Sequence record: LR597641
Origin: Escherichia phage mEp460_ev081
Reading direction: 5' to 3' (one strand)
Length of the DNA stretch: 45,865 bases
Positions 7,988 to 28,919 of this stretch are shown in pieces. A model generated the notes under the pieces. It made no database searches and was not told the origin of the DNA. It saw nothing but the letters and a program-made list of their open reading frames with translations. Position 1 is the stretch's first letter. Each line of letters opens with the position of its first letter. Both the position numbers and the translations under genes were made by a program.

Positions 7988-8731
7988 ATGACCACACCAA
8001 ATCCACTGGCAAAGACGAAAGGTGCGGGGACGACGTTCTGGATGTATACCGGCAACGGCGATGCGTTTGCGAACCCTTTGTCGGACACTGACTGGCTGCG
8101 TCTTGCGATGGTGAAGGATCTGCAACCTGGCGAAATGACCGCTGATGCAGAAGATGACACTTATCTCGATGATGAAGATGCAGACTGGAAAACGACAACC
8201 CAGGGGCAGAAATCCGTTGGTGATACTTCGGCGACGCTGGCCTGGCGTCCGGGTGACAGCGGGCAGAAAAAACTGGTTCAGTTGTTCGACTCCGGTGAAG
8301 TCTGCGCGTTTCGTATCAAATATCCCAACGGCACTGTTGATGTTTTCCGTGGCTGGCTGAGCTCACTGGGTAAAACCATTGCCTCAAAAGACGTGATGAC
8401 CCGCACTGTGAAAATCAGCGGTGTGGGGCGTCCGTATCTGGCAGAGGAAGGCACTGAAACCGTGAGCGTTACCGGGCTGACAGTATCACCGGCGTCTGCC
8501 AGTGTAAAAGTGGGAGCAACCACCACGCTGACCTTTACAGTAAAACCTGACGGAGCCAGTGACAAAGCGATCAGTGTGCATTCGTCAGATCCACAGACTG
8601 CCACGGTTACCCTGAACGGACTTGTGGCCACGGTAAAAGGCGTGAAGCAGGGCAGTGTCAGCATTGTGGGCATGACCGCTGACGGGAATTTTGTGGCTGT
8701 GACTGCGGTGACTGTCAGCGCAGCAGGTTAA
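7988..8731 (+). CDS. Major tail protein V with C-terminal Ig-like domain
   Basis: Strong similarity to lambda gpV (KGAGTTFWMY...NPLSD.DW...DLQPGE...YLDDEDADW); start ATG preceded by aaggagg RBS. Confidence 0.9.
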   Translation: MTTPNPLAKTKGAGTTFWMYTGNGDAFANPLSDTDWLRLAMVKDLQPGEMTADAEDDTYLDDEDADWKTTTQGQKSVGDTSATLAWRPGDSGQKKLVQLFDSGEVCAFRIKYPNGTVDVFRGWLSSLGKTIASKDVMTRTVKISGVGRPYLAEEGTETVSVTGLTVSPASASVKVGATTTLTFTVKPDGASDKAISVHSSDPQTATVTLNGLVATVKGVKQGSVSIVGMTADGNFVAVTAVTVSAAG

Positions 8732-8751
8732 CAGGACGATACTCATCATTT

Positions 8752-8776
8752 GCCCCGGTTATGCGGGGCTTTTTTG
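8752..8776 (+). terminator. Attenuating terminator between V and G
   Basis: gccccggttatgcggggc hairpin followed by a T-run just upstream of the G start. Confidence 0.45.
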
Positions 8777-8788
8777 CAGGTGGAGAAC

Positions 8789-9178
8789 ATGATGTTTCTG
8801 AAACAGGACACGTTTAATTATGAAAAACAGTCCGTGGTGCTCAGTGAGCTGTCCGGGCTGCAGAGAATTGAATATCTGACGTTTGTTCAGCAGCGAACGG
8901 CAAAGTTTGATGCCGGGGAGGGAGAACTGCCGGAGGCTGAACGACAGATTGCTTTTCTGCGGATGGGGATGGATATCAATGCCTGGCTGGTTTCCCGCTC
9001 ACTGTGGAATGCGGATCAGTCTAAGGATGTAGAGACGCTTTGCGCATCCGTTATTACAACATGGTCGTATGATGCCCTAGGTGCGGGGGCGGAGATGGTT
9101 CTGTCGCTGAGCGGTATGGGGGCCATTGATAATGCCGTGGATGATGAGCATGAGGCGCTGACGCCGGAAAAGTCCTGA
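8789..9178 (+). CDS. Tail assembly chaperone G
   Basis: Similarity to lambda gpG (MFLK...VLSELSGLQRIE); position upstream of the tape measure gene. Confidence 0.85.
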   Translation: MMFLKQDTFNYEKQSVVLSELSGLQRIEYLTFVQQRTAKFDAGEGELPEAERQIAFLRMGMDINAWLVSRSLWNADQSKDVETLCASVITTWSYDALGAGAEMVLSLSGMGAIDNAVDDEHEALTPEKS

Positions 9179-9186
9179 CGCGGGAA

Positions 9187-9516
9187 ATGCAGTTTGTCAT
9201 GCGGCTTGCCCGGGAGTTCCGGCGGGCAGACTGGCGGCGGATGCTGTCGGAAATGTCGGCCACTGAGCTTGGTGAGTGGGGCGATTATTTCCGGATGCAG
9301 AGCTTCAGTGATGTGTGGATGGATGCGCAGTTTGCCTCGCTGAAGGCATTGATCGTGAGAATGGTGTCCGGCAGCAGTGATGCTGCGGTGGCTGATTTCA
9401 GCCTTTTACCGGAAGAGAACGGGATACCGGAGCGAACGGACGAAGAACTGATGCATCTTGGGGAAGGTATTTCCGGAGGTGTGCGTTATGGACCAGATAG
9501 CCAACCTGGTCATTGA
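9187..9516 (+). CDS. Tail assembly protein T segment (expressed as G-T fusion by -1 frameshift)
   Basis: -1 frame relative to G is open from about 9154 and overlaps the 3' end of G; a GGAAAAG heptamer at 9166-9172 is the candidate slip site. Coordinates are the first-ATG ORF; the true T segment begins at the slip site. Confidence 0.65.
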   Translation: MQFVMRLAREFRRADWRRMLSEMSATELGEWGDYFRMQSFSDVWMDAQFASLKALIVRMVSGSSDAAVADFSLLPEENGIPERTDEELMHLGEGISGGVRYGPDSQPGH

Positions 9517-12500
9517 TTTGGGGATTGATGCGGCAGAGTTTAAAAATGAAATTCCCCGTATCAAAAACCTTCTGAATGGTGCAGCCAGCGATGCAGAACG
9601 GTCTTCTGCCCGTATGCAGCGTTTTATGGAGCGTCAGACTCAGGCCGCCCGGCAGACAACGCAGGCAGCTTCTTCGGCTGCAACAGCCGCATCCGTCCAT
9701 GCGCAGACGGTGGAGAAGAACGCACAGGCTCATGAACGCATGGCCCGCGAGGTGGAGAAAACCCGCCAGCGCATGGAGGCACTGAGCCAGAAAATGCGCG
9801 AGGAACAGGCGCAGGCCATGGCTCTGGCGGAGGCTCAGGATAAAGCGGCTGCTGCGTTTTATCGTCAGATTGACAGTGTGAAACAGGCCAGTGCGGGGCT
9901 GCAGGAATTACAGCGTATTCAGCAGCAGATCCGACAGGCCAGAAACAGTGGCGGGATTGGTCAGCAGGATTATCTGGCGCTGATTTCTGAGGTTACTGCG
10001 AAAACCCGTGTTCTTACACAGGCTGAGGAAGAGGCTACCCGACAGAAAGTGGCGTTTATCCGTCAGCTTAAAGAGCAGGCAACCCGCCTGAATCTTTCAT
10101 CTTCTGAGTTGCTTCGTGCTAAGGCAGCCCAGCTGGGGGTAAGCAGTGCTGCAGAAGTGTATATCCGCAAAATGGAGCAGGCAGGAAAAGCCACGCATTC
10201 GCTGGGTCTGAAAAGTGCAGCAGCCCGCCAGGAGATAGGCGTTCTGATAGGTGAACTGGCCCGCGGCAATTTAGGGGCGCTGAGGGGATCCGGGATAACG
10301 CTGGCTAACCGTGCCGGATGGATAGACACACTGATGTCACCGAAAGGCATGATGCTTGGCGGGGTTATTGGCGGTATTGCCGCGGCCGTCTATGGTCTGG
10401 GTAAAGCCTGGTATGACGGTCAGAAGGAGGGGGAAGAATTTAACCGCCAGTTGTCGCTGACGGGGCATTATGCCGGAGTCACTGCCGGGCAGCTGTGGAC
10501 GCTCAGTCGTGCTATTTCCGGGAATGGTATCACGCAACATGCTGCAGCCGGTGCGCTGGCTCAGGTGGTGGGGAGTGGTGCATTTCGTGGAAACGATATC
10601 GGTATGGTGGCGAGAGCTGCCGCACAGATGGAGCGATCGGTTGGCCAGTCGGTCAGCGATACCATAAATCAGTTTAAGCGGCTGAAGGATGATCCTGTAA
10701 ATGCCGCGAAGGCTCTGGACAATGAGCTGCATTTTCTTACTGCCACTCAGCTTGAGCAGATACGCGTCCTTGGGGAGCAGGGGCGGTCCAGTGATGCTGC
10801 ACGGATAGCCATGTCTGCACTGGCAGAGGAAACCGGTCGGCGTACTGCGGATATTGATAATAACCTCAATGCGCTTGGCAGTACGCTGAAGTATCTGTCT
10901 GATTTGTGGAGTCGTTTCTGGGATGCGGCCATGAATATTGGTCGTGAAGACTCGCTGGATGAACAGATTGCCGCTTTACAGGAGAAAGTGTCGCGGGCGA
11001 AAAGACTCCCCTGGACGGCATCATCTTCTCAGGTTGAATACGATCAGCAGCGTCTTAACGATCTTCAGGAGAAAAAACGCCAGAAGGATTTGCAGGATGC
11101 AAAAGAGCAGGCAGAGCGGAATTATCAGGAGCAACAGAAACGCCGTAATGCTGAAAATGCTGCACTGAACCGGATGAATGAAACGGAAGCAGCACGACAT
11201 CAGCGTGAAATTGCGCGTATTAATGCCATGCAGTACGCCGATCAGGCTGTCAGGGATGCGGCGATACAACGTGAAAATGAACGTTACGAGAAAGCCCTGG
11301 CATCCGGTAAGAAAAAAACACGCGAAACCCGTAATGATGAGGCCACCCGGTTATTGCTGCAGTACAGTCAGCAACAGGCACAGGTGGAAGGACAGATTGC
11401 TGCTGCCAGACAGTCAGCAGGCATTGCCACGGAAAGGATGACAGAAGCGCATAAACAGCTTCTGGCTCTGCAGCAGCGCATCAGCGACCTGGACGGGAAA
11501 AAACTGACGGCAGATGAAAAGAGTGTGCTGGCCCGTAAAGATGAACTGATTCAGGCACTGACGCTGCTGGATGTAAAACAGCAGGAGCTTCAGAAACAGA
11601 CGGCACTCAACGAGCTGAAGAAAAAAACAATTCAGCTGACCAGTCAACTGGCTGAAGAAGAGCGCGCTCAGCGTCAGCAACATGACCTGGATATCGCCAC
11701 GGTGGGTATGGGTGATCAGCAGCGACAGCGATATCAGGTACAACTGAGTCTTCGCCAGAAATACCAGCAACAGCTGGAGCAGTTGAGGCGGGATAGTGAG
11801 CAGAAAGGGACATATAACACGGATGACTACAGAAAGGCCGAGCAGGCGCTGACGGAGAGCCTGAACCGACAACTGAATGAGAATCGCCGTTACTGGCAAC
11901 AGCTTGAAGTTGTGCAGGGTAACTGGAAAAACGGAGTCCTGCGTGCATTTCAGGATTTTACCGTGGATGCAGATAATACGGCAGAAACAGCAGAACAGGT
12001 GTTCTCGTCAGCCTTCAGCAACATGGGAAATGGCCTGGCAACTTTTGTCACTACCGGCAAACTCAATTTCAAATCCTTCACCTCTTCTGTGCTGTCAGAT
12101 ATGGCGAAAATCCTGGCGCAGGCAACCATGATGAAATCGATAAAAGGGATTGGCAGTGTACTGGGATTTGATCTCAGCAGCCTTTCCCTGAATGCCAATG
12201 GGGGGATTTATCAGTCTGCTGATTTGAGTCGTTACAGTGGCACGGTGGTTAACCGTCCGACGTTTTTTGCTTTTGCAAAAGGCGCGGGTGTGATGGGGGA
12301 AGCGGGACCTGAAGCCATTCTGCCATTGCGTCGTGGTGCTGACGGTAAGCTGGGGGTTGTGGCGGATATTGGGGGTTCAGGTATGGCGATGTTTTCCCCG
12401 CAGTACAACATCGAGATCAATAACGATGGCACGAACGGGCAGATAGGTCCGGCTGCCCTGAAGGTGGTTTATGACCTTGGGAAAAAAGCGGCAGCGGACT

Positions 12501-14944: not shown

Positions 14945-17900
14945 ATGGGTAAAGGCAGCAGTAAGGGGCATACTCCGCGCGAAGCGAAGGACAACCTGAA
15001 GTCCACGCAGTTGCTGAGTGTGATCGATGCCATCAGCGAAGGGCCGGTTGAAGGTCCGGTGGATGGATTAAAAAGCGTGCTGCTGAACAGTACGCCAGTG
15101 CTGGACACTGAGGGGAATACCAACATCTCCGGCGTCACGGTGGTGTTCCGGGCCGGTGAGCAGGAGCAGACACCGCCGGAGGGATTTGAATCCTCCGGCT
15201 CCGAGGCGGTGCTGGGTACGGAAGTGAAATACGACACGCCGATCACCCGGACCATCACGTCGGCAAACATTGACCGACTGCGTTTTACCTTCGGCGTGCA
15301 GGCACTGGTGGAAACCACCTCAAAGGGGGACAGGAATCCGTCGGAAGTCCGCCTGCTGGTTCAGATACAACGTAACGGTGGCTGGGTGACGGAAAAAGAC
15401 ATCACCATTAAAGGCAAAACCACCTCACAGTATCTGGCCTCGGTGGTGGTGGGTAACCTGCCGCCGCGCCCGTTCAATATCCGGATGCGCAGGATGACGC
15501 CGGACAGCACCACAGACCAGCTGCAGAACAAAACGCTCTGGTCGTCATACACCGAAATCATCGATGTGAAACAGTGCTACCCGAACACGGCACTGGTCGG
15601 CGTACAGGTGGATTCGGAGCAGTTCGGCAGCCAGCAGGTGAGCCGTAATTATCATCTTCGCGGGCGCATTCTGCAGGTGCCGTCGAACTATAACCCGCAG
15701 ACGCGACAATACAGCGGTATCTGGGACGGAACGTTACAACCGGCATACAGCAACAACATGGCCTGGTGTCTGTGGGATATGCTGACCCATCCGCGCTACG
15801 GCATGGGGAAACGTCTTGGTGCGGCGGATGTGGATAAATGGGCGCTGTATGTCATCGGCCAGAATTGCGACCAGTCGGTGCCGGATGGCTTTGGTGGCAC
15901 GGAACCGCGTATCACCTGTAATGCGTACCTGACCACGCAGCGCAAGGCGTGGGATGTGCTCAGTGATTTCTGCTCGGCGATGCGCTGTATGCCGGTATGG
16001 AACGGGCAGACGCTGACGTTCGTGCAGGACCGGCCATCGGATAAGGTGTGGACCTATAACCGCAGTAATGTGGTGATGCCGGATGATGGCGCGCCGTTCC
16101 GCTACAGCTTCAGCGCCCTGAAGGACCGTCATAATGCCGTTGAGGTGAACTGGATTGACCCGAATAACGGCTGGGAGACGGCGACAGAGCTTGTGGAGGA
16201 TACGCAGGCCATTGTCCGTTATGGTCGTAACGTCACGAAGATGGATGCCTTTGGCTGTACCAGCCGGGGGCAGGCACACCGCGCCGGGCTGTGGCTGATT
16301 AAAACGGAGCTGCTGGAGACGCAGACCGTGGACTTCAGCGTGGGCGCAGAAGGGCTTCGCCATGTACCGGGCGATGTCATTGAAATCTGTGATGATGACT
16401 ATGCGGGGATCAGCACCGGCGGGCGTGTGCTGGCGGTGAACAGCCAGACCCGGACGCTGACGCTCGACCGTGAAATCACGCTGCCATCCTCCGGTACCAC
16501 GCTGATAAGCCTGGTTGACGGAAGTGGCAATCCGGTCAGCGTGGAGGTTCAGTCCGTCACCGACGGCGTGAAGGTGAAAGTGAGCCGTGTTCCTGACGGC
16601 GTTGCCGGATACAGCGTGTGGGGGCTGAAGCTGCCGACGCTGCGCCAGCGCCTGTTCCGCTGTGTGAGTATCCGTGAGAACGACGACGGCACGTATGCCA
16701 TCACTGCCGTGCAGCATGTGCCGGAAAAAGAGGCCATCGTGGATAACGGAGCGCACTTTGACGGCGACCAGAGCGGCACGGTGAATGGTGTCACGCCGCC
16801 AGCGGTGCAGCACCTGACCGCAGAAGTCACCGCAGACAGTGGGGAGTATCAGGTGCTGGCGCGCTGGGACACGCCGAAGGTAGTGAAGGGTGTGAGCTTT
16901 ATGCTTCGCCTGACCGTGGCCGCCGATGACGGCAGTGAGCGGCTGGTCAGCACGGCCCGGACGACGGAAACCACTTACCGCTTCAGGCAGCTGGCGCTGG
17001 GGCGTTACACGCTGACGGTCCGGGCGGTAAATGCCCGGGGACAGCAGGGCGATCCGGCGTCGGTATCGTTCCGGATTGCCGCCCCGGCAGCGCCGTCGCG
17101 GATTGAGCTGACGCCGGGCTATTTTCAGATAACTGCCACGCCGCATCTTGCGGTTTATGATCCGACGGTACAGTTTGAGTTCTGGTTCTCGGAAACGCGG
17201 ATTACCGATATCAGGCAGGTTGAAACCACAGCCCGCTACCTTGGCACGGGGCTGTACTGGATAGCCGCCAGTATCAATATCAAACCGGGCCATGATTATT
17301 ACTTTTATATCCGCAGTGTGAACACCGTTGGCAAATCGGCATTCGTGGAGGCCGTCGGTCGGGCGAGCGATGATGCGGAAGGTTACCTGGATTTTTTCAA
17401 AGGCAAGATAACCGAATCCCATCTCGGTAAAGAGCTGCTGGAAAAAGTTGATCTGACGGAGGATAACGCCAGCAGACTGGATGAGTTTTCGAAAGAGTGG
17501 AAGGACGCTAACGATAAATGGAATGCCATGTGGGGCGTCAAAATTGAGCAGACCAAAGACGGCAAACATTATGTCGCGGGTATTGGCCTCAGCATGGAGG
17601 ACACGGAGGAAGGCAAGCTGAGCCAGTTTCTGGTTGCCGCTAACCGTATCGCGTTTATTGACCCGGCAAACGGGAATGAAACGCCGATGTTTGTGGCGCA
17701 GGGCAACCAGATATTCATGAACGACGTGTTCCTGAAGCGCCTGACAGCCCCCACCATTACCAGCGGTGGCAGTCCTCCGGTATTTTCCCTGACATCAGAC
17801 GGAAAGCTGACCGCTAAAAATGCGGATATCAGTGGTAGTGTGAATGCGAACTCAGGAACGCTCAACAATGTCACGATTAACCAGAACTGTACGATTAAGG

Positions 17901-18358
17901 GCATGCTGGAGGCGACCCAGGTCAGAGGGGATTTCGTTAAAGCTGTATCAAAAGCCTTCCCGAAAAAAGTCGGTACGTGGGGTAACACGGAAACACCAAA
18001 CGGTACGGTTACAGTCACCATCAGCGATGATCATAACTTTGACCGCCAGATTATTATTCCGCCCATTATTTTTAACGGTATAGCGTATGACGATCCGGGG
18101 AGCGGAAATAACCCAGGAGGCACGCGATACACGGGTTATGGTTTTGAAGTTCGCAAAAACGGCGTATTAATCGCATCCAGAGAAACTAAAGGGGCCATTC
18201 CCGGTAGTTACAGTGCAGTTATTGATATGCCTAGTGGTGGTGGTAGCGTCACTCTGGAGTTTAAGATTTTCCAGAAAGGCAATCAGGGGGCAGGCAATAT
18301 CACCGACTGTACGGTGATTGTGACCAAAAAAGCCGCTTCCGGCATCAGTATTCGTTGA
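14945..18358 (+). CDS. Tail tip / host specificity protein J
   Basis: 1137 aa; N-terminus [34 protein letters not shown] matches lambda gpJ; the C-terminal receptor-binding region diverges from what I recall of lambda J. Confidence 0.95.
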
Positions 18359-18378
18359 AATTGTTATAACCCATATAA

Positions 18379-18406
18379 GGGCACCAGAAATGGTGCCTTT
18401 TTTATT
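18379..18406 (+). terminator. Rho-independent terminator after J
   Basis: ggcaccagaaatggtgcc hairpin followed by ttttttatt. Confidence 0.5.
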
Positions 18407-18427
18407 GCAGAAAAGCGAGAGGTAATT

Positions 18428-19027
18428 ATGCGTAAACTTTATGCCGCCATTTTTTCCGCAGCCATTTGTCTGGCCGTATCCGGTGCGCCTGCATGGGCAT
18501 CTGAACATCAGTCCACGCTGAGCGCGGGGTATCTTCATGCCTCGACGAACGTTCCCGGCAGCGATGATCTTAACGGGATTAACGTGAAATACCGTTATGA
18601 GTTTACGGACACACTGGGGATGGTGACGTCGTTCAGCTATGCAGGAGACAAGAATCGCCAGCTGACCCGTTACAGCGATACCCGCTGGTATGAAGATTCC
18701 GTGCGTAACCGCTGGTTCAGCGTGATGGCGGGGCCGTCTGTACGCGTGAATGAATGGTTCAGCGCGTATGCGATGGCGGGTGTGGCTTACAGCCGTGTGT
18801 CGACTTTCTCCGGGGATTATCTCCGCGTAACTGACAATAAGGGGAAAACGCACGATGTGCTAACCGGAAGTGATGACGGTCGCCACAGCAACACGTCTCT
18901 GGCGTGGGGGGCTGGCGTGCAGTTTAACCCGACCGAGTCCGTGGCCATTGATGTCGCTTATGAAGGTTCCGGCAGTGGCGACTGGCGCACTGACGGTTTC
19001 ATCGTGGGTGTCGGTTATAAATTCTGA
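18428..19027 (+). CDS. lom: Outer membrane protein Lom (Ail/Lom/PagC family)
   Basis: 199 aa with signal peptide and a beta-barrel-like alternating pattern ending GYKF; lambda lom position after J. Confidence 0.85.
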   Translation: MRKLYAAIFSAAICLAVSGAPAWASEHQSTLSAGYLHASTNVPGSDDLNGINVKYRYEFTDTLGMVTSFSYAGDKNRQLTRYSDTRWYEDSVRNRWFSVMAGPSVRVNEWFSAYAMAGVAYSRVSTFSGDYLRVTDNKGKTHDVLTGSDDGRHSNTSLAWGAGVQFNPTESVAIDVAYEGSGSGDWRTDGFIVGVGYKF

Positions 19028-19053
19028 TTAGCCAGGTAACACAGTGTTATGAC

Positions 19054-19081
19054 AGCCCGCCGGTTCAGGCGGGCTTTTTTG
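19054..19081 (+). terminator. Rho-independent terminator after lom
   Basis: agcccgccggttcaggcgggc hairpin followed by a T-run. Confidence 0.5.
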
Positions 19082-19085
19082 TGGG

Positions 19086-22000
19086 GTGAATATGGCAGTA
19101 AAGATTTCAGGTGTACTGAAAGACGGCACAGGAAAACCGGTACAGAACTGCACAATCCAGCTGAAAGCAAAACGTAACAGTACCACGGTGGTGGTGAACA
19201 CGCTGGCCTCAGAAAATCCGGATGAAGCCGGGCGTTACAGCATGGACGTTGAGTACGGGCAGTACAGCGTTATTCTGTTGGTGGAGGGATTCCCGCCGTC
19301 ACATGCCGGGACCATCACCGTGTATGAAGATTCCCGACCCGGTACGCTGAATGATTTTCTCGGTGCCATGACGGAGGATGATGCCCGTCCGGAGGCACTG
19401 CGCCGTTTTGAACTGATGGTGGAAGAGGTGGCGCGTAACGCGTCCGTGGTGGCACAGAACACGGCAGTCGCGAAGAAGTCAGCCGGCGATGCCGGCACAT
19501 CTGCCCGTGAGGCGGCAACCCATGCGACTGATGCTACAGGCTCAGCACGCGCAGCCAGCACGTCAGCCGGACAGGCCGCTTCGTCGGCTCAGTCAGCGTC
19601 TTCCAGCGCAGGAACGGCATCAACAAAGGCCACTGAAGCATCAAAAAGTGCTGCCGCTGCAGAGTCCTCAAAAAGCGCGGCAGCTACCAGTGCCAGTGCC
19701 GCGAAAACGTCAGAAACGAATGCGGCAGCGTCACAACAATCAGCAGCCACTTCTGCATCCACCGCGACCACGAAAGCGTCAGAAGCTGCCACCTCAGCCC
19801 GGGATGCGGCGGCTTCAAAAGAGGCGGCAAAATCATCAGAAACGAACGCATCCTCGAGCGCCAGTAGCGCAGCTTCCTCGGCAACAGCGGCAGGAAATTC
19901 CGCGAAGGCGGCAAAAACGTCCGAGACGAACGCCAGGTCTTCTGAGACGGCAGCGGGACAGAGCGCCTCAGCTGCGGCAGGCTCAAAAACAGCGGCTGCG
20001 TCGTCTGCCAGTGCCGCGTCAACAAGTGCCGGGCAGGCCTCAGCCAGTGCCATCGCCGCCGGAAAATCGGCAGAAAGCGCCGCATCATCCGCTTCAACAG
20101 CCACAACGAAGGCTGGCGAAGCCACTGAACAGGCCAGCGCAGCAGCGAGGTCAGCTTCCGCAGCGAAGACATCCGAAACGAACGCGAAAGCGTCGGAAAC
20201 CAGCGCAGAATCCTCAAAAACGGCTGCCGCATCGTCCGCCAGTTCGGCGGCGTCATCGGCCTCATCGGCGTCTGCTTCAAAAGATGAGGCGACCAGACAA
20301 GCGTCAGCAGCGAAGGGCAGCGCCACGACGGCATCCACGAAGGCAACAGAGGCTGCTGGCAGTGCGACGGCGGCAGCACAGAGCAAGAGTACGGCAGAAT
20401 CCGCAGCAACGCGCGCCGAGACAGCAGCAAAACGGGCAGAGGATATTGCATCCGCTGTGGCGCTTGAGGATGCGAGCACGACGAAAAAGGGGATAGTACA
20501 GCTCAGTAGTGCGACTAACAGCACTTCCGAGTCACTGGCGGCAACACCAAAAGCCGTTAAGGCCGCGTATGACCTGGCTAACGGGAAATACACCGCACAG
20601 GATGCAACGACAGCACAGAAAGGGATAATCCAGCTAAGCAGCGCGACCAACAGCACGTCTGAAACGCTTGCCGCGACACCAAAGGCAGTAAAAACAGCCT
20701 ATGACAATGCTGAGAAACGTCTGCAGAAAGATCAGAACGGTGCGGATATCCCTGGCAAAGACACCTTTACGAAAAATATTGGTGCCTGCCGTGCCTTTGG
20801 TGGGTCAGTAAGCACAATAACAGGAAACTGGACGACTGCACAGTTTATCGAGTGGCTGGATTCTCAGGGAGCATTTAACCATCCCTACTGGATGTGCAAG
20901 GGTTCCTGGTCTTATGGCAATAATAAAATCATTACTGATACTGACTGCGGTAATATTCATCTCGCCGGAGCTGTCATTGAAGTAATGGGGATAAAATCAG
21001 CGATGACGATCCGCATTACCACACCGACCACCTCCACTGGTGGTGGAACAACTAACGCCCAGTTTACCTATATTAATCACGGAACAGATTATTCACCTGG
21101 CTGGCGAAGGGACTATAACTCCAGAAATAAGCCAACGGCATCAGAGATCGGGGCGTTACCGTCAGGTGGAACAGCAGTATCATCAGTTAATCTGTCTTCA
21201 AAAGGTCGGGTAACCGCGCTGACAGACAATACGCAGGGGGCAACAGGTCTTGAGTTATACGAGGTGTATAACAACGGATATCCAACAGCGTATGGAAATA
21301 TCATTCACCTGAAAGGGATGACAGCCGTTGGCGAAGGTGAGTTACTCATCGGCTGGAGTGGTACAAGCGGTGCTCATGCTCCGGCATTTATTCGTTCACG
21401 ACGGGATACGACCGACGCAAACTGGTCGCCGTGGGCGCAGCTTTACACCTCGGCTCATCCTCCTGCAGAGTTTTATCCAGTCGGTGCACCAATCCCGTGG
21501 CCATCAGATACCGTTCCGTCTGGCTATGCCCTGATGCAGGGGCAGATTTTTGACAAATCTGCATACCCGAAACTTGCAGCGGCTTATCCGTCAGGCGTGA
21601 TCCCTGATATGCGTGGCTGGACGATTAAGGGCAAACCTACCAGTGGTCGGGCCGTATTGTCTCAGGAACAGGACGGCATTAAATCGCATACCCACAGCGC
21701 CAGCGCATCCAGTACGGATTTGGGGACGAAAACCACATCGTCGTTTGATTACGGCACTAAATCCACGAATAACACTGGTGCGCATACCCATAGTTTAAGT
21801 GGCAGCACGAATGCAGCTGGTAATCACAGCCATAGAGATGGCCGTCGATTTAACCCCAGTGTTTTTAAAGATACTTATCAATATGGTTATACAAGCTCAG
21901 GTCAAAATACCTGGGGTGTACAAGGCTCAGTAGGTATGTCTACGGGGTGGTTAGCTAATACCAGTACAGATGGTAATCATAGCCACTCACTGTCCGGCAC

Positions 22001-22163
22001 AGCAGCATCTGCAGGTGCACACGCGCATACTGTCGGTATTGGTGCTCATACGCACTCCGTTGCGATTGGTTCACATGGACACACCATCACCGTTAACGCT
22101 GCTGGTAACGCGGAAAACACCGTCAAAAACATCGCATTTAACTATATTGTGAGGCTTGCATAA
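19086..22163 (+). CDS. stf: Side tail fiber protein Stf
   Basis: N-terminus [26 protein letters not shown] matches lambda Stf (likely true start at the ATG at 19092); long Ala/Ser/Thr-rich repeat region; C-terminal His-rich GxHxH repeats and ending [11 protein letters not shown] as in lambda-type fibres. Confidence 0.9.
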
Positions 22164-22738
22164 TGGCATTCAGAATGAGTGAACAACCACGGACCATAAA
22201 AATTTATAATCTGCTGGCCGGAACTAATGAATTTATTGGTGAAGGTGATGCATATATTCCGCCTCATACAGGTCTGCCAGCAAACAGTACCGATATTGCA
22301 CCGCCAGATATTCCGGCTGGCTTCGTGGCTGTTTTCAACAGTGATGAGTCATCGTGGCATCTCGTTGAAGATCATCGGGGTAAAACGGTTTATGACGTGG
22401 CTTCCGGCGACGCGTTATTTATTTCTGAACTCGGTCCGTTACCGGAAAATGTTACCTGGTTATCGCCGGAAGGGGAGTTTCAGAAGTGGAACGGCACAGC
22501 CTGGGTGAAGGATACGGAAGCAGAAAAACTGTTCCGGATCCGGGAGGCGGAAGAAACAAAAAACAACCTGATGCAGGTAGCCAGTGAGCATATTGCGCCG
22601 CTTCAGGATGCTGCAGATCTGGAAATTGCAACGGAGGAAGAAATCTCGTTGCTGGAAGCATGGAAAAAGTATCGGGTATTGCTGAACCGTGTTGATACGT
22701 CAACTGCACAGGATATTGAATGGCCAGCACTGCCGTAG
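22163..22738 (+). CDS. tfa: Tail fiber assembly protein Tfa
   Basis: 191 aa; start overlaps the stf stop; conserved Tfa-like C-terminus ([29 protein letters not shown]). Confidence 0.9.
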
Positions 22739-22835
22739 GGTAAAACATATAAATTCTATAATTAGATGTATCTTTCCATTTACGGCAAGGAAGGGGGCTT
22801 GGAAGACGTAAAGCATCTCACACCGAGATTATTTT

Positions 22836-23426
22836 TTATATGTCAGGTGTCTGAAGTTTTGCTTTGGCTCTTAAAATGGTTTGCCGCGAGGTTTTGAATT
22901 CCCGGGCAATGGCACTTATACTTACACCTGACTTAATTCGTTCGAATACCACCTGTTTCTGTTCTTCATTTAACACAGGTGGTCGACCAAAACGTTTCCC
23001 TGCGCCGCGGGCTCTTACTATCCCGGAATGAGTGCGTTCAAGTAAAAGGTCTCGTTCAAATTCAGCGACTGCTGAAATTACTTGCATCATCATTTTTCCT
23101 GTTGGACTGGTCAGGTCAATGCCACCCAATGCTAAGCAATGCACTCTGATACCTGTTTCGGTCAGTTGTTCCACTGTTTTCCTGATATCCATTGCATTAC
23201 AACCAAGGCGATCCAGTTTTGTCACAATCAATTGATCACCACATTTCAGGCGAGCAAGCAACCGGTTAAAACCTGGACGCTCACTGGTTGCTGCTGAGCC
23301 GCTAATGTGTTCTTCGATTATTTGCTGAGGTTTGATTTTAAAACCTGCACTTTCGATTTCCCGGCGTTGATTTTCGGTGGTCTGATCCAGCGTTGATATC
23401 CGACAGTAAGCAAAAATTCGAGACAT
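22836..23426 (-). CDS. Serine recombinase / DNA invertase (Pin/Gin/Hin family)
   Basis: 196 aa with N-terminal catalytic motif (YCRISTLDQ with presumptive catalytic Ser), resolvase/invertase core and C-terminal HTH; located directly downstream of tfa as pin genes are in e14/Rac/Qin. Confidence 0.85.
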
Positions 23427-23742
23427 AGTGAGACTCTATACGAAATTGGTGTTCATATCATAATGCATCTCAGAAAATAATTATGATTATTTTTGTGCAT
23501 ATTTGTATGTACACGTTCGAAAATAAACGAATGCGTATGCAACCCCGTAATTTTGGTGAGACCCAAAATCGATTTTGTGAAAAAAGGCTTTAACTCGGTT
23601 TGTTTTTCGAGTTCCGGGCGGACTCAAGGAAGAAGAATAGTGTTGCGTGTTATTTTAACCAGATTTCAAGTTGTTTGGTCGTGGAAAAGTGGAGCAAAAT
23701 GTTGTTAAAGTGGAAAAATGATAAAAAAGTAAGTTTATTATA

Positions 23743-23976
23743 TTACATTTTACCATTTAAATTTTGGTTGTCTTTAAGAACTGATATCGCTGTTTGTAAT
23801 AATTCTTTGTTATCCAGCCATGATTTTTTCTTTATGTTTCCTTCAATGTAATCAAGCAATGTTCTGGTATTGATAGGTCTTCCCTGTTTTGCTACTTCCA
23901 CTACAGCATCCCCTAGGATAATTCTTACTTCAGGAAGCTGCGCAGGGAACCACTTTAGGGTGTCTTTTGATTTCAT
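23743..23976 (-). CDS. Small protein, YdfK/YnaE-like (tentative)
   Basis: 77-aa ORF next to the pin-like gene in an AT-rich region, the position occupied by ydfK in Qin; similarity is from memory and unverified. Confidence 0.4.
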   Translation of the reverse strand: MKSKDTLKWFPAQLPEVRIILGDAVVEVAKQGRPINTRTLLDYIEGNIKKKSWLDNKELLQTAISVLKDNQNLNGKM

Positions 23977-24808
23977 GAAGATATTCCTTAAAATATTATT
24001 GATTTTCATTGCGATATTGTATGTCTGATTCAGGATATGTTGACTTATACATCGGTTTTGTCTGGGTTATTGGATATGCCAATCCCTAATTTTATTAGGG
24101 CATGACTAAAAATGCTGAATATGATAAGGAGAGATGTGATTATCAGTATGCTGTTCATATAGCCTCGAATTAGTAATGTGTTATATATGATATAGTTGAC
24201 AATTTTTATCTTGGGTGTTCTTAAAGTTCGTAGATAAACATTGTCGTTTCAGGTATACAGGAATGCTAACAGGTGGCAGCAAAAATCAGGCGGTTTATGG
24301 CGCAAGCTGAAGCGGCAACTGTAAACTATCTTATGCAGAGACTCTACACGGATTGGGTTTAAAAGTATACATAGATAACAGTTTTTATCTGAAAAAGAAA
24401 AATATCAAGGTGATATAGCCTATATGCCTTTGATGCGGAGGAATGAATGTGATGGGAGTGATGTATCTGAATAGTTGAAAAACCGCAGACACGCCTTATG
24501 CAAGAACGTGCTGCGGTTGGCTGGTAAATTTTTCGATAGTGTGAGTATTGAATGATTTCCAGCCGTTCTTGATTTTACGCATAAATCCATGAAAAAACTA
24601 CTTATCTGTTGGGGAGTTTTTTTTGGGGCATATATGGGACAGAAATAGGCCCCAGATAGACACTGAGATCGAACTTAGGATGCTTTTTAAAAAATGCAAC
24701 TATCTGAAAAAACCTAGAAAACGCCAAGGAAACCACAGGATGGGAAAAAACACCTGTGAATTATGGATTTCAAGAGTCATACGTGTCAACTATTTGATAA
24801 ATATTAAA

Positions 24809-26089
24809 TTAATTTTTCATTGCTTCGTTATGGGGCATGGTTGGGGCAAACTCGCTTAACTGTGTATTTAACAAAGCTACCTGTGCATTATTGTTTTCAG
24901 ACATCCATTTTCCGTATACCTGAAATACCATTTGCGCATCTGCATGGCCCATCTGGTTTGCTATAAATGCCGGGTTAGCACCAGCTGTCAGCGACCAGCA
25001 GGCATAAGTATGTCTCGACTGATATGATTTTCGATGGCGGAGTCCGGCACGTTTTATCGCTGCGTCCCACATCTGCCTTATTGAGTCAACGGTAAAATGG
25101 TCACCATAATTTTTTACTCTCGCTGACACTTCAGGTTGAAAAACAAAGGTGCATTTATGTTTTTCTGTTCTGCCATACTCTCTGAGGTAAACATCAATGA
25201 TATGCTCTTTGCTCAGTCTCGTTAATGTCATCTGACTCCGGAGAGCGTCGATTGCTGGCTTAATAAGATGAATGACCCGATTGGTTCCCGCCTGTGTTTT
25301 TGGTACCGTGAAACGGTCTTTTGCTAAATTTCTCCTGATCATCATTGTTCCATTTTTCAGATCTATGTCCTCCCATCCAAGTGCACACAGCTCACCAGGG
25401 CGAACGCCAGTATAAACAGAAACACACCATAAATTTTTGGCTTGCTGATTTCTGCACGCATCGATAAGACGGATGAATTCCTCCCGCGAAAGAGGATCCG
25501 GAATGGTTCTTGATTCCTTTAATGGCGAGATCCCCTTAAACGGGTTATCTGCCAGGTAACCGTTATCAACACCAAACTGGAACACGGCGTTAAGATTTGT
25601 CATGTAATTATTTACAGTTACAGCCGATCTCCCTGGTTGTGTAACAATATAGTTACTTTTGGGGATCTGGTATCCAGTCAGTAGCTCTTTACGAACCTCC
25701 AGTAATTTTTCTTTATTAATCGATGAGGCAAGATTTTTTTCACCGATTATGCTCAGGATATTTTTGATGACGGCACGGTATGTGTTGAGTGATGTTTTTG
25801 CGACTTCAGTTTCTTTCAGTGCCAGAAATTTTTCAGCCAGTTCTTTTATGGTTAAATCTTGTCGGGCCTCACCAAATTTTTCCAGATTGCGTGAGGAGGG
25901 AAACTGTTTTGCATAGTCGAAAACACCAGTTTTTATTGCGTAACAAACAGAGGCGCGTAGCTCACCTGCAACGCGCCTGTTTTTTGCTGTGTCAGGAACC
26001 CCCAGGTTTTCCCTGACTCTTACGCCTTTATAAACAAACCAGATACGTAATTTCCCTCCATGGTTTTCCACGCCTGTCGGATATTTCAT
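24809..26089 (-). CDS. int: Tyrosine integrase
   Basis: C-terminal catalytic signature (RHTYACWSL...GH...VYGKW containing the R, HxxR and Y elements); adjacent excisionase; start set at MKYPTGVENHGGK (the ORF extends 5 codons further upstream). Confidence 0.9.
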   Translation of the reverse strand: MKYPTGVENHGGKLRIWFVYKGVRVRENLGVPDTAKNRRVAGELRASVCYAIKTGVFDYAKQFPSSRNLEKFGEARQDLTIKELAEKFLALKETEVAKTSLNTYRAVIKNILSIIGEKNLASSINKEKLLEVRKELLTGYQIPKSNYIVTQPGRSAVTVNNYMTNLNAVFQFGVDNGYLADNPFKGISPLKESRTIPDPLSREEFIRLIDACRNQQAKNLWCVSVYTGVRPGELCALGWEDIDLKNGTMMIRRNLAKDRFTVPKTQAGTNRVIHLIKPAIDALRSQMTLTRLSKEHIIDVYLREYGRTEKHKCTFVFQPEVSARVKNYGDHFTVDSIRQMWDAAIKRAGLRHRKSYQSRHTYACWSLTAGANPAFIANQMGHADAQMVFQVYGKWMSENNNAQVALLNTQLSEFAPTMPHNEAMKN

Positions 26090-26123
26090 TTCAACTTCTC
26101 TCATTAGTTAGTGTGGCTTTTAG

Positions 26124-26375
26124 TCAAGTAAGATGACGTCTTGGTCTTGCTGATGCCTGGCGCTCAATCCAGCGATCAATTTCTTCCAGGTTGTAAAAGC
26201 ATGGACTGTTATCCCATGGCATACCGTCATGAGCGACATGCTTATATTCCCTTCCTTCCATAAACGATTTTTCCCGGGCCTTTTTTAACGTACCTTTTTT
26301 TATTCCTTTCAGCGCAATTAACTGCTCTTCGGATACCCATTTGCCGGGAGAGACAATCATGATTACTTCGCTCAT
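26124..26375 (-). CDS. xis: Excisionase (putative)
   Basis: 83-aa basic ORF immediately upstream of and co-oriented with int. Confidence 0.6.
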   Translation of the reverse strand: MSEVIMIVSPGKWVSEEQLIALKGIKKGTLKKAREKSFMEGREYKHVAHDGMPWDNSPCFYNLEEIDRWIERQASARPRRHLT

Positions 26376-26447
26376 CGATTTCTTTATCTCTTACATCAGA
26401 CGAGCGCCGGTTGCAGAATACCAGTCACAACCGGCGACAGTTGAACA

Positions 26448-28919
26448 TTAAGAATCAGCCTGACTCGGGATCAGTTTTTGCCAGATAGCTGAAACGTATT
26501 TTGCCTGGTAACGGGCGTCATCAAGTGCATTATGGCGCTCACCTTCGAATGGAATAGCCGTTCTGGCATCGAAGTCTATGGCTTTCCCCAGCTCAACGAT
26601 TGTGCGTACATCGCGATCGTTGTAGTAACGCCACGGGCAGGGGATCCCCTGCCGTTCGTATGAACGGCGCAAAATCGTGTTGTCGAAGTTGGCTCCATTT
26701 CCCCAGACATGAACAAAAAATTCACCGGAGTTTTCGTCGATAAATTCCCGCAATTGTAACAGTGCATCATCTAACGGGATTTCATCGGTCATAATGGCAG
26801 ATTGCGCTTCGCGTGATTGTTTAAGCCACCATTTAATGGTGTCCCGATCAATGACTCCGCCAGCAGTTTCCAGATCGATAGTCTTACTAAATTCCGGTCC
26901 CATATCTCCGGTTTGCGGATCGAAAAATATTGCACCTATTGAGATAATCGGGGCATCGGGATTTTTTCCCATGGTTTCAAGGTCGATCATCAGATGAATC
27001 CCCGCTCTGCTGGTGGATGTGAGATTATGATGACCGTTCGCCTTAATTAAGGGATCTGACGCCTCGCCAGTTTCACTATCGCTGGCATGATGCTGATTGC
27101 TGCCAGTGTTCTCCTTGTGCTGATGCGCAGAGCCTTCCATTTCCTCCAGATCATTTTTCTGAACTTCAGGCTGATTCTCTCCATCGAATATTTCCTGGTA
27201 TGTTGCGTCACCCATCACCGCACCACAATCAGGGCAGTTGCCGCCACCGCTCTGACCGCAGGCGGTGCAGATCTTTTCCGGTTCCTGTTGCACTACTGGT
27301 TCAGGTTGTTTCGTTTCTGGCTCGTTTTGTTGCGTATTTGGGCTGTTTTGTTCCGCTTTCTGGTCGTTCTGTTCCGTTTCTTGCTGGTTCTGGTTCACAG
27401 AATCGCGGGTCTGGATCCCCTTAATCCATTTCGGATCATTCGGGTCGCTAATCCCTTCAACAAATTCACCACGTGATACTGCAAGCAGTTCATCGGCGTC
27501 AGGCTGGCTGATATTGGCTGCCTGCATAATTTTGTTTACTTCGTCAGCGGTAACTTTTACTGACCCTGGTTGTGCGGTCGTGTCAGATGCACCAGTATTT
27601 TGTTGTGAACCTGAGTATGTACCGTTTTTGCGGGCGAAATATTCTTCTTTCGTGATTTCAGTAGCCCCAGCAGACAGCGCCTTATCCAGACCAGAAAGTT
27701 TATTTGCGCGACCGTATTTTTCGCCATCCTTGTCGGTGAAGAGGAAGTAGAACGGCCCCTCACGTTCTACAGATGGTTCGACTTCCACTTTGCATTCGGT
27801 TTTTTCGTTGTCTGGAATTGCCGTTTCCACTGCATCAGTTTCTGGTACTGGCGACGAGAGAGTATCAGTTGCGCTCTGATTTGTTCCTTCATCTTCAAAC
27901 ACGCCCTTTGTAGTCAGGTATTCAGTAATGTATTTGTTCAGTGCCACAGGGTCTTTGTGAATGTCGATCGGACGTTCACGGACAAGGCCAAAAATAGTCT
28001 GGCGGTCGTAGCGAAGGGCATCAGGCTGTTTGCGCATTGATGCCGAGATACGCTTCCAGTCTTCGCGGTCGTTGTCGATAACTTCATTTTTTGCCCAGCG
28101 ATGGATGCTGCCGTCAATGTTTCCGGCATCCACATCACCAGGCCAGAGAGCGTAGGCCAGTTCGTCATCCAGTGTTTTCCATGTCTGCTTGTATTCGCGA
28201 TGAATGGCAGCAATGACCGGGTTGATTTTTCCTGTTGAATTTTCAGTGTGCTGTTGATTGGCTCTGGCGCGGGCGAGATCAACAACAGACGTGTATTTTC
28301 CGGCTTCCTTGCGTTCACCTTCGCGACGTTTTTTCCAGATGCGCATCTCTGCCTGAATTTCGGGCCATTTGGCACCAGGCTTACATTTATGCTTAACCCA
28401 CCCGATGGCATGCAGCTTAAGCTCCGGATACATAGCGTTAACTTCTGGCATTTTCATCAACGCTTCAACGATATGGCCGTCGAATGTTGCCATGTCTTCC
28501 TGCAACAATTCCTGTGCGCTAATCACCATATCAACAGTGATGTTTTCACATGTGTCGAACTTAACCATGACAGCGTTCTGTACTTCAGGGGCTAGGTTGT
28601 CAAAAGTGACGTTCATCGGATCGGATTCAGTCTCGACCGGGACAAAGGAAGCAGACGCCTCATCCCAGCGGTTTTCCTGCATATATTCAGCATCCCAGGA
28701 ATCGAGGGCAGGGCGGGGTATACCGGGTTTATCCTCGCAAACAAGAAATTTATAAGCGCAGTCCTGAGCAGCCGGATAATGTTCCAGGAATTGCCAGTGA
28801 AATTTTGCGCGGGCGCGACGTTCATCACCGGCTTCAATGGCAGTGGCTACAGCGACGGCACCTTCTTCCTTTATTGCCTGTTCGTCCGGAATGGCGGCGC
28901 AAATAAAGACTTTACTCAT
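26448..28919 (-). CDS. Large exonuclease-family protein with C-terminal DEDDh (DnaQ-like) 3'-5' exonuclease domain
   Basis: 823 aa; C-terminal IDLETMG...WGNGANFD...HNALDDARY matches the Exo I/II/III motifs of DnaQ-like exonucleases; central CTACG...CPDCG zinc-ribbon-like motif and a Q/N/E-rich low-complexity linker. Confidence 0.75.
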   Translation of the reverse strand: MSKVFICAAIPDEQAIKEEGAVAVATAIEAGDERRARAKFHWQFLEHYPAAQDCAYKFLVCEDKPGIPRPALDSWDAEYMQENRWDEASASFVPVETESDPMNVTFDNLAPEVQNAVMVKFDTCENITVDMVISAQELLQEDMATFDGHIVEALMKMPEVNAMYPELKLHAIGWVKHKCKPGAKWPEIQAEMRIWKKRREGERKEAGKYTSVVDLARARANQQHTENSTGKINPVIAAIHREYKQTWKTLDDELAYALWPGDVDAGNIDGSIHRWAKNEVIDNDREDWKRISASMRKQPDALRYDRQTIFGLVRERPIDIHKDPVALNKYITEYLTTKGVFEDEGTNQSATDTLSSPVPETDAVETAIPDNEKTECKVEVEPSVEREGPFYFLFTDKDGEKYGRANKLSGLDKALSAGATEITKEEYFARKNGTYSGSQQNTGASDTTAQPGSVKVTADEVNKIMQAANISQPDADELLAVSRGEFVEGISDPNDPKWIKGIQTRDSVNQNQQETEQNDQKAEQNSPNTQQNEPETKQPEPVVQQEPEKICTACGQSGGGNCPDCGAVMGDATYQEIFDGENQPEVQKNDLEEMEGSAHQHKENTGSNQHHASDSETGEASDPLIKANGHHNLTSTSRAGIHLMIDLETMGKNPDAPIISIGAIFFDPQTGDMGPEFSKTIDLETAGGVIDRDTIKWWLKQSREAQSAIMTDEIPLDDALLQLREFIDENSGEFFVHVWGNGANFDNTILRRSYERQGIPCPWRYYNDRDVRTIVELGKAIDFDARTAIPFEGERHNALDDARYQAKYVSAIWQKLIPSQADS

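Follow-up and report, generated by a model that had tools for sequence, protein, structure and literature searches.

The pin gene behind the tail-fibre genes of a lambdoid Escherichia phage is probably a relic tnpR of a decayed Tn3-family transposon

Introduction

Din invertases, among them Gin of Mu, Cin of P1, PinE of e14 and Hin, are small serine recombinases whose genes lie beside tail-fibre genes and whose products are usually annotated as DNA invertases. They come with 26-bp crossover sites, an invertible segment, alternative fibre ends and, in the 5′ part of the invertase gene, a recombinational enhancer that depends on Fis, and members of the clade are about 60–80% identical to one another. 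Genes with the same neighbours and the same annotation occur in Escherichia coli K-12 as pinR (b1374) of the Rac prophage and pinQ (b1545) of the Qin prophage. Both lie in decayed cryptic prophages, in the order stf-tfa-pin-ydfK/ynaE-ynaM/ynfT with pin convergent to tfa.

The only published function in this group is that of PinQ, to which PinR is stated to be equivalent: it inverts the P segment of e14 in trans, which creates StfE2, and StfE2 blocks T2 adsorption (PMC12529663). The authors of that study conclude that PinQ and PinR are active invertases, and PinQ/PinR was recently put forward as the founding case of anti-phage systems activated by a recombinase. In their BLAST searches with Qin and Rac queries, inversions were seen in e14 only, and their paper mentions neither Tn3 nor the residue change described below (PMC12529663). 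The papers that a search found to name both pinR and Tn3 are plasmid annotation papers, and none of them discusses the origin of PinR. A preprint in which a fljAB-linked Salmonella gene is called 'pinR' was set aside, the name there being only the annotation label of a predicted invertase.

Here we analyse the pin gene of Escherichia phage mEp460_ev081 within a stretch of 45,865 nucleotides (sequence record LR597641), referred to below as the window. The gene belongs to the known PinR/PinQ group, and both the gene and its arrangement have been described before. What can usefully be added is a transposon origin, which we consider likely, and an Arg-to-Cys change at a catalytic position.

Results

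The pin locus of the window

Around pin, the window has the vegetative gene order of a lambdoid phage genome (J, lom, stf, tfa, pin, a ydfK/ynaE-like open reading frame, int and xis; Table 1). An earlier note on this DNA had placed an intact serine recombinase gene about 100 bp past tfa on the opposite strand, and this was borne out: tfa and pin are convergent, with 97 bp from stop codon to stop codon. The pin protein consists of a Resolvase domain (PF00239, E=2.5e-36) and an HTH_7 domain (PF02796, E=3.8e-11), the two domains that also make up the Din invertases. Its top match among solved structures was Gin (E=2.7e-29), NCBIfam yielded sub-threshold matches only, to invertase and resolvase models alike, and public annotations name the product a DNA invertase.

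Table 1. Positions of pin and of the features around it in the window
Feature	Position	Strand	Basis
J	14945-18358		gene order around pin in the window
stf, side tail fibre	19086..22163	+	Pfam phage_tail_N, Phage_fiber_2, Collar
tfa, tail fibre assembly	22163..22738	+	Pfam Caudo_TAP, E=3.6e-43
decayed 38-bp terminal inverted repeat (right end) of a Tn3-family transposon	22790..22827	.	alignment with GGGGTCCGCTTGGAAAACGGAAAATATCCCACGCTAAG
pin, 196-aa small serine recombinase	22836..23426	-	Pfam; 100% identical to K-12 PinR
codon 76 of pin, TGT (Cys), at the position of catalytic Arg71 of Tn3/gamma-delta resolvase	23199..23201	-	alignments
decayed res region	23427..23522	-	alignment with transposon res
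ydfK/ynaE-like open reading frame upstream of pin	23743..24009	-	b-region module common to Qin and Rac
int, followed by xis	24809-26104	-	gene order in the window

Two further observations concern reading frames. A long, repetitive Ala/Ser/Thr-rich stretch of stf (19500-20450) gives rise to shadow open reading frames of 335, 355 and 255 aa in other frames and on the opposite strand, which are almost certainly not genes. An open reading frame of 823 aa lies downstream of xis (26448-28919, minus strand).

The pin protein is 100% identical to PinR and differs from PinQ by 2 residues (99% identity). At the DNA level, identity to Rac and Qin was 99% from window 21967/21978 to 24520/24774, and the gene order of the K-12 module is shared, as is the cysteine at position 76. 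The K-12 copies stand in cryptic prophages, whereas the module of the window is part of an apparently complete lambdoid phage genome, with J, lom, stf and tfa followed by att, int and xis. When window 20500-24800 was used as a query against 5426 complete E. coli genomes, some part of it was matched in 5404, and at least 80% of it was covered by one collinear alignment in 453. PinR at an identity of at least 99% was found in ten sequenced lambdoid phages; the next phage match was at 61%, and true Din invertases were at about 38%.

Three phages with other stf/tfa genes, HannyBb, Tritos and PhiR63_1, share a common stretch with the window only from position 22627 on. Even where the tail fibre is a different one, the last ~110 bp of tfa thus move together with pin and the b region. 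Because these phages share only the end of tfa through the b region, pin travels with the b region and the att side, whichever tail fibre precedes them.

Beyond pin, the b region is a hot spot of cargo exchange. In PhiR68_2 (8025-11505 of the locus compared), a close relative, the pin-ydfK module is followed by ybcY, a tfa fragment, appY and ompT, and this cargo occupies the place of the att and int of the window. The order presumably mirrors the end of the DLP12 prophage on the K-12 map. The homology to K-12 Qin ends at about window 24774, exactly at the annotated Qin boundary beside ydfJ, so the phage attachment site is probably at ~24774, where some 35 bp separate it from the 3′ end of int (24809). 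The region around ~24774 is bracketed by an imperfect inverted repeat of 35 nt (24167-24201 and 24784-24818, 74%).

The window lacks an invertible segment and crossover sites

The earlier note had found neither an alternative inverted stf′/tfa′ segment nor an obvious pair of crossover sites, and had proposed a search for gix/hix-like half-sites. All of our searches agreed with it. In the six frames of the window, tblastn detected neither another tfa nor another stf C-terminus. Long inverted repeats were absent from 18000-26500, where only short, weak pairs consistent with chance were present. Related phages and the 453 E. coli genomes align to the region as single collinear matches. The half-site pattern TTATCNAAAACC was not enriched, with 18 matches against 13.5 expected, and no inverted pair of sites emerged.

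Full-length sites were scanned with the 26-bp Din consensus TTMTCNNAAACC-NN-GGTTTNNGAKAA, scored out of 20. Scores of 18-19 were obtained for all four reference sites, namely the two pix sites of K-12 e14, gix and hixL. The best site in the window scored 16 and lies inside gene J at 17186, and shuffled sequences reached the same score. Sites scoring at least 13 numbered 19 in the window, compared with 20 expected. Dyads of the type recognised by transposon TnpR (see below) were likewise scanned for across the whole window, and none scored above chance, including upstream of pin. Neither kind of site was found in the interior of stf, which leaves the note's suggestion that the recombinase acts on a site inside stf without support. 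A perfect 7+7 dyad, ATTTTGG-TGAGAC-CCAAAAT, is present upstream of pin at 23550-23569, shortly beyond the point where the transposon-derived DNA described below ends. As a recombinase site we rejected this dyad (ATTTTGG-n6-CCAAAAT), which has no partner and resembles neither site class.

With no cognate site anywhere in the window, whether of the Din type (gix/pix) or a TGTCCGAAA-type dyad, the description of the gene as orphaned is supported. pin is an orphan in cis, and any activity must be in trans. Since pin is not supplied with a substrate in cis and is not tied to one tail fibre, it does not switch the host range of the phage.

PinR groups with Tn3-family resolvases

The label 'Pin-like invertase' given in the note did not survive comparison of the proteins. 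PinR shared 37.7% of its residues with PinE, 36.1% with Gin and 31.5% with gamma-delta resolvase, compared with 79% between PinE and Gin and 37% between Gin and gamma-delta resolvase (the PinE sequence was read from its locus). These values place PinR outside the Din family, at a distance from the Din invertases that equals that of a transposon resolvase. None of the Din-family features looked for was found with pin: clade-level identity, a pair of 26-bp sites, an invertible segment or alternative fibre ends.

By contrast, PinR was 84.5% identical in amino acids and 82% in nucleotides to P0014, an E. coli plasmid protein whose sequence was likewise read from its locus (L002), where it is the TnpR. 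In 5 of the 6 loci listed, a 160-bp spacer separates the gene for P0014 from a divergent gene for a Tn3-family transposase of 994 aa. Homologues at 78-84% identity occur on E. coli plasmids and in Hafnia, Shewanella and Klebsiella, and those outside E. coli (78-79%) show the same tnpR/tnpA arrangement as the E. coli element. Altogether, in 11 of the 16 loci listed, covering four host groups, the tnpR homologue and the gene for a DDE_Tnp_Tn3 transposase of 994 aa point away from each other across a gap of about 160 bp. In the remaining five loci tnpA is missing or broken; it is absent from L006 and L020 and reduced to a fragment of 138-177 aa in L012 and L019. pin thus belongs, at 78-84% identity, to a clade encoded beside Tn3-family transposases. 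The E. coli element is 3.8 kb long and has perfect 38-bp terminal inverted repeats of the Tn3 type (GGGGTCCGCTTGGAAAACGGAAAATATCCCACGCTAAG) at both ends in L002 and L007.

Transposon relics flank pin

The similarity to the transposon does not stop at the ends of the gene. By blastn, the window and the transposon were 82% identical over 712 bp (window 22797-23506), so that homology overruns pin at both ends, for 39 bp beyond its stop codon, where it reaches the terminal repeat, and for 80 bp upstream, where it enters res. The terminal-repeat relic between tfa and pin was identical to the transposon repeat at 25 of 38 positions (counted manually from the alignment).

An alignment of res from four transposons revealed a conserved dyad beside tnpA, TGACCGAAA-n8-TTTCGGACA, a second conserved dyad, TGTCCGAAA-n14-TTTCGGAYA, and a further half-site beside tnpR, TTTCGTACA. 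The tnpA-side dyad is presumed to be crossover site I. The window retains the right half of this presumed site (TTTCGAACG, 23514-23522), and similarity is gone past its centre. The relic of site II is mutated (TGCACAAAA...TTTCTGAGA, 23468-23499), and the half-site of site III is in fairly good condition (23437-23445). In a position-weight scan, the transposon dyads scored 28.8 and 27.1 bits, compared with a maximum of 14.6 bits in the window, which is below the mean maximum of shuffled sequences. Thus, what adjoins pin is a decayed relic of res and not an intact site.

Transposon homology ends beyond about 23523-23531, near the centre of the presumed crossover site, and no remnant of tnpA was found in the window; of the two 38-bp repeats, one decayed copy is left. 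A second break of this kind was present in L006 (4841-4911), an E. coli microcin plasmid contig. There, tnpR and res are present and tnpA is absent, and in the comparison with L002 similarity to the full transposon stops in the left half of the tnpA-proximal dyad, where that of the window also stops. Breaks within the same dyad fit recombination at site I, and the alignments suggest that recombination at the tnpA-proximal dyad may repeatedly part tnpR from tnpA.

In short, pin shares with Tn3-family TnpR a nearly identical recognition helix and homology that reaches into the terminal repeat and res. It differs in the loss of the transposase gene, the left end and an intact res dyad, and in the two properties described next.

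A catalytic arginine is replaced by cysteine and selection is relaxed

Cys76 of PinR aligns with Arg71, both with the sequences of the Gin and gamma-delta resolvase crystals and in the family alignment. The nucleotide alignment shows CGT in the transposon gene, so that a single CGT-to-TGT transition accounts for the cysteine. Among the best 120 cluster representatives, position 76 was Arg in 112, Cys in 5 and unscorable in 3; the cysteine was confined to PinR/PinQ-type clusters, which include a second prophage lineage at 85% identity. The residues Y7, R9, S11 and R73, equivalent to Y6, R8, S10 and R68 of Tn3 resolvase, are kept. Position 39 is Glu throughout the PinR/TnpR clade, where Tn3 has D36. 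The complete Tn3 catalytic set (Y6, R8, S10, D36, R68 and R71) is therefore not present in PinR.

Mutational work on Tn3 resolvase counts Y6, R8, S10, R68 and R71 among the crucial residues (Olorunniji and Stark, PMC2794168). In that work, R71A and R71K abolished recombination and cut cleavage ~1000-fold while leaving binding intact, and site binding survived every mutation tested (PMC2794168). The alignment thus makes the catalytic competence of PinR doubtful. Because the HTH region is almost unchanged from that of transposon TnpR, PinR probably still binds TGTCCGAAA-type DNA.

Among the database proteins, a few rare ones (P0004-P0008) are clean chimeras with an N-terminal part of the TnpR type, carrying Arg76, and a C-terminal part of the PinR type. 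These could reflect homologous recombination between plasmid transposon and prophage copies, or could be assembly artefacts.

Between two Cys-bearing prophage lineages, dN/dS of pin was 0.335. This is below neutral, 34 of the 62 changes being non-synonymous compared with 76.6% expected (p=1.4e-4). For transposon-borne tnpR, dN/dS was 0.02-0.07 in the four of six pairs for which dS could be computed; dS exceeded 3 in two of these four, and the reliable values are 0.065 (E. coli-Shewanella) and 0.049 (Hafnia-Klebsiella). Where measurable, dN/dS of prophage pin was therefore 5-15 times above that of transposon tnpR. These results indicate that pin is under purifying selection that is relaxed but real and, as the gene is both intact and selected, that it has some function.

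Discussion

We consider it likely that pin is a relic tnpR of a decayed Tn3-family transposon, with no substrate in cis, that is now carried as a trans-acting accessory gene. The order of events would have been as follows. An ancestral lambdoid phage may have received a Tn3-family transposon ~50 bp past the end of tfa. The transposon would later have lost its transposase half, and the break close to the middle of the presumed res site I may point, to judge from the alignment, to resolvase-mediated recombination at that site. Still in place would be the recombinase gene, between a decayed terminal repeat and a res region that has decayed until no intact binding dyad is left; the ydfK/ynaE-like open reading frame is part of the b-region module and lies outside the transposon relic. 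In the prophage lineage, a single C-to-T change would then have turned the catalytic arginine (R71) into cysteine, and the gene would have been kept as an accessory gene of the b region under relaxed purifying selection. If pin derives from tnpR and not from a Din invertase, an invertible stf/tfa segment was never to be expected beside it. Any action of PinR would be in trans, and a DNA-binding or modulating role seems more likely for it than that of an efficient recombinase.

That the gene is instead a stranded invertase of the Gin/Cin/Pin/Hin type, whose stf′/tfa′ segment and crossover sites have been deleted, was suggested by its place beside tail-fibre genes, as with gin, cin and pinE, by Gin as the best structure match and by the public annotation as DNA invertase. 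The sequence relationships of pin contradict this reading, which we regard as highly improbable: the identity to Gin and PinE is about that of gamma-delta resolvase to Gin, the closest relative by far is a transposon TnpR, relics of a terminal repeat and of res lie on either side of the gene, the module follows the b region and the att side and not one stf/tfa type, and neither gix-like sites nor remnants of stf/tfa were found in the window. The protein might also be a resolvase that has stayed active and works on an intact res of related Tn3-family transposons or of plasmids elsewhere in the same cell, for example by resolving cointegrates or plasmid multimers. Its HTH region is almost equal to that of transposon TnpR, and related transposons are common on E. 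coli plasmids. However, these transposons encode their own TnpR, PinR has cysteine at the R71 position, and the dN/dS of pin is well above that of transposon-borne genes where it was measured; we judge this role very unlikely.

A different role in trans follows from the published work on PinQ. According to it, PinR would be an anti-phage accessory that flips the 1.8-kb P segment of e14 at pix in a lysogenised host, and the chimeric StfE2 would block adsorption of T2-like phages and protect the host, so that a local invertible segment would not be needed. PinQ, for which this was reported, is only 2 residues away, and the protein of the window is identical to PinR. In that study T2 survivors carried the P segment in inverted orientation, the wild type showed 30% inversion compared with 88% when PinQ was overproduced, and the effect was gone in strains with stfP, stfE or e14 deleted (PMC12529663). 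However, its Table S4 gives 22% inversion without pinQ and 1.5% without pinE, with pinQ and pinR still present, and the 88% is listed for a pinE+ strain only (PMC12529663). These figures therefore do not distinguish PinQ as the direct catalyst from PinQ acting through PinE. The cysteine at the R71 position speaks against this role too, as does an HTH region near-identical to that of TnpR, whose TGTCCGAAA-type sites differ from pix (TTCTCCCAAACC). We think that this role in inversion is possible, if on the whole unlikely. The earlier note's suggestion of action in trans on other elements accordingly agrees with the published claim for PinQ/PinR, and the paper leaves direct catalysis by PinQ unproven.

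A more speculative idea, which we hold only tentatively and consider rather doubtful, is that PinR and PinQ are domesticated, catalytically crippled resolvases that bind DNA or partner other serine recombinases without cutting on their own. Such a protein might, for example, bias the PinE-driven inversion of the e14 P segment, or poison or repress related Tn3-family transposons. A counter-point to our main reading is the inversion reported with overproduced PinQ: if PinQ catalyses it directly, then the cysteine must be tolerated, and pix, which is unlike the TnpR sites, must be recognised.

For the phage of this window, these results mean that the tail fibre is not phase-variable. More widely, most E. 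coli genomes and many lambdoid phages have this pin gene, which is routinely annotated as a DNA invertase. A transposon origin would explain why the invertible segment is missing and would correct this annotation, and the Arg-to-Cys change bears on the published mechanism of PinQ. If the protein is indeed a crippled resolvase, the anti-phage mechanism published for the 'PinQ invertase' would need to be reinterpreted as PinE-dependent.
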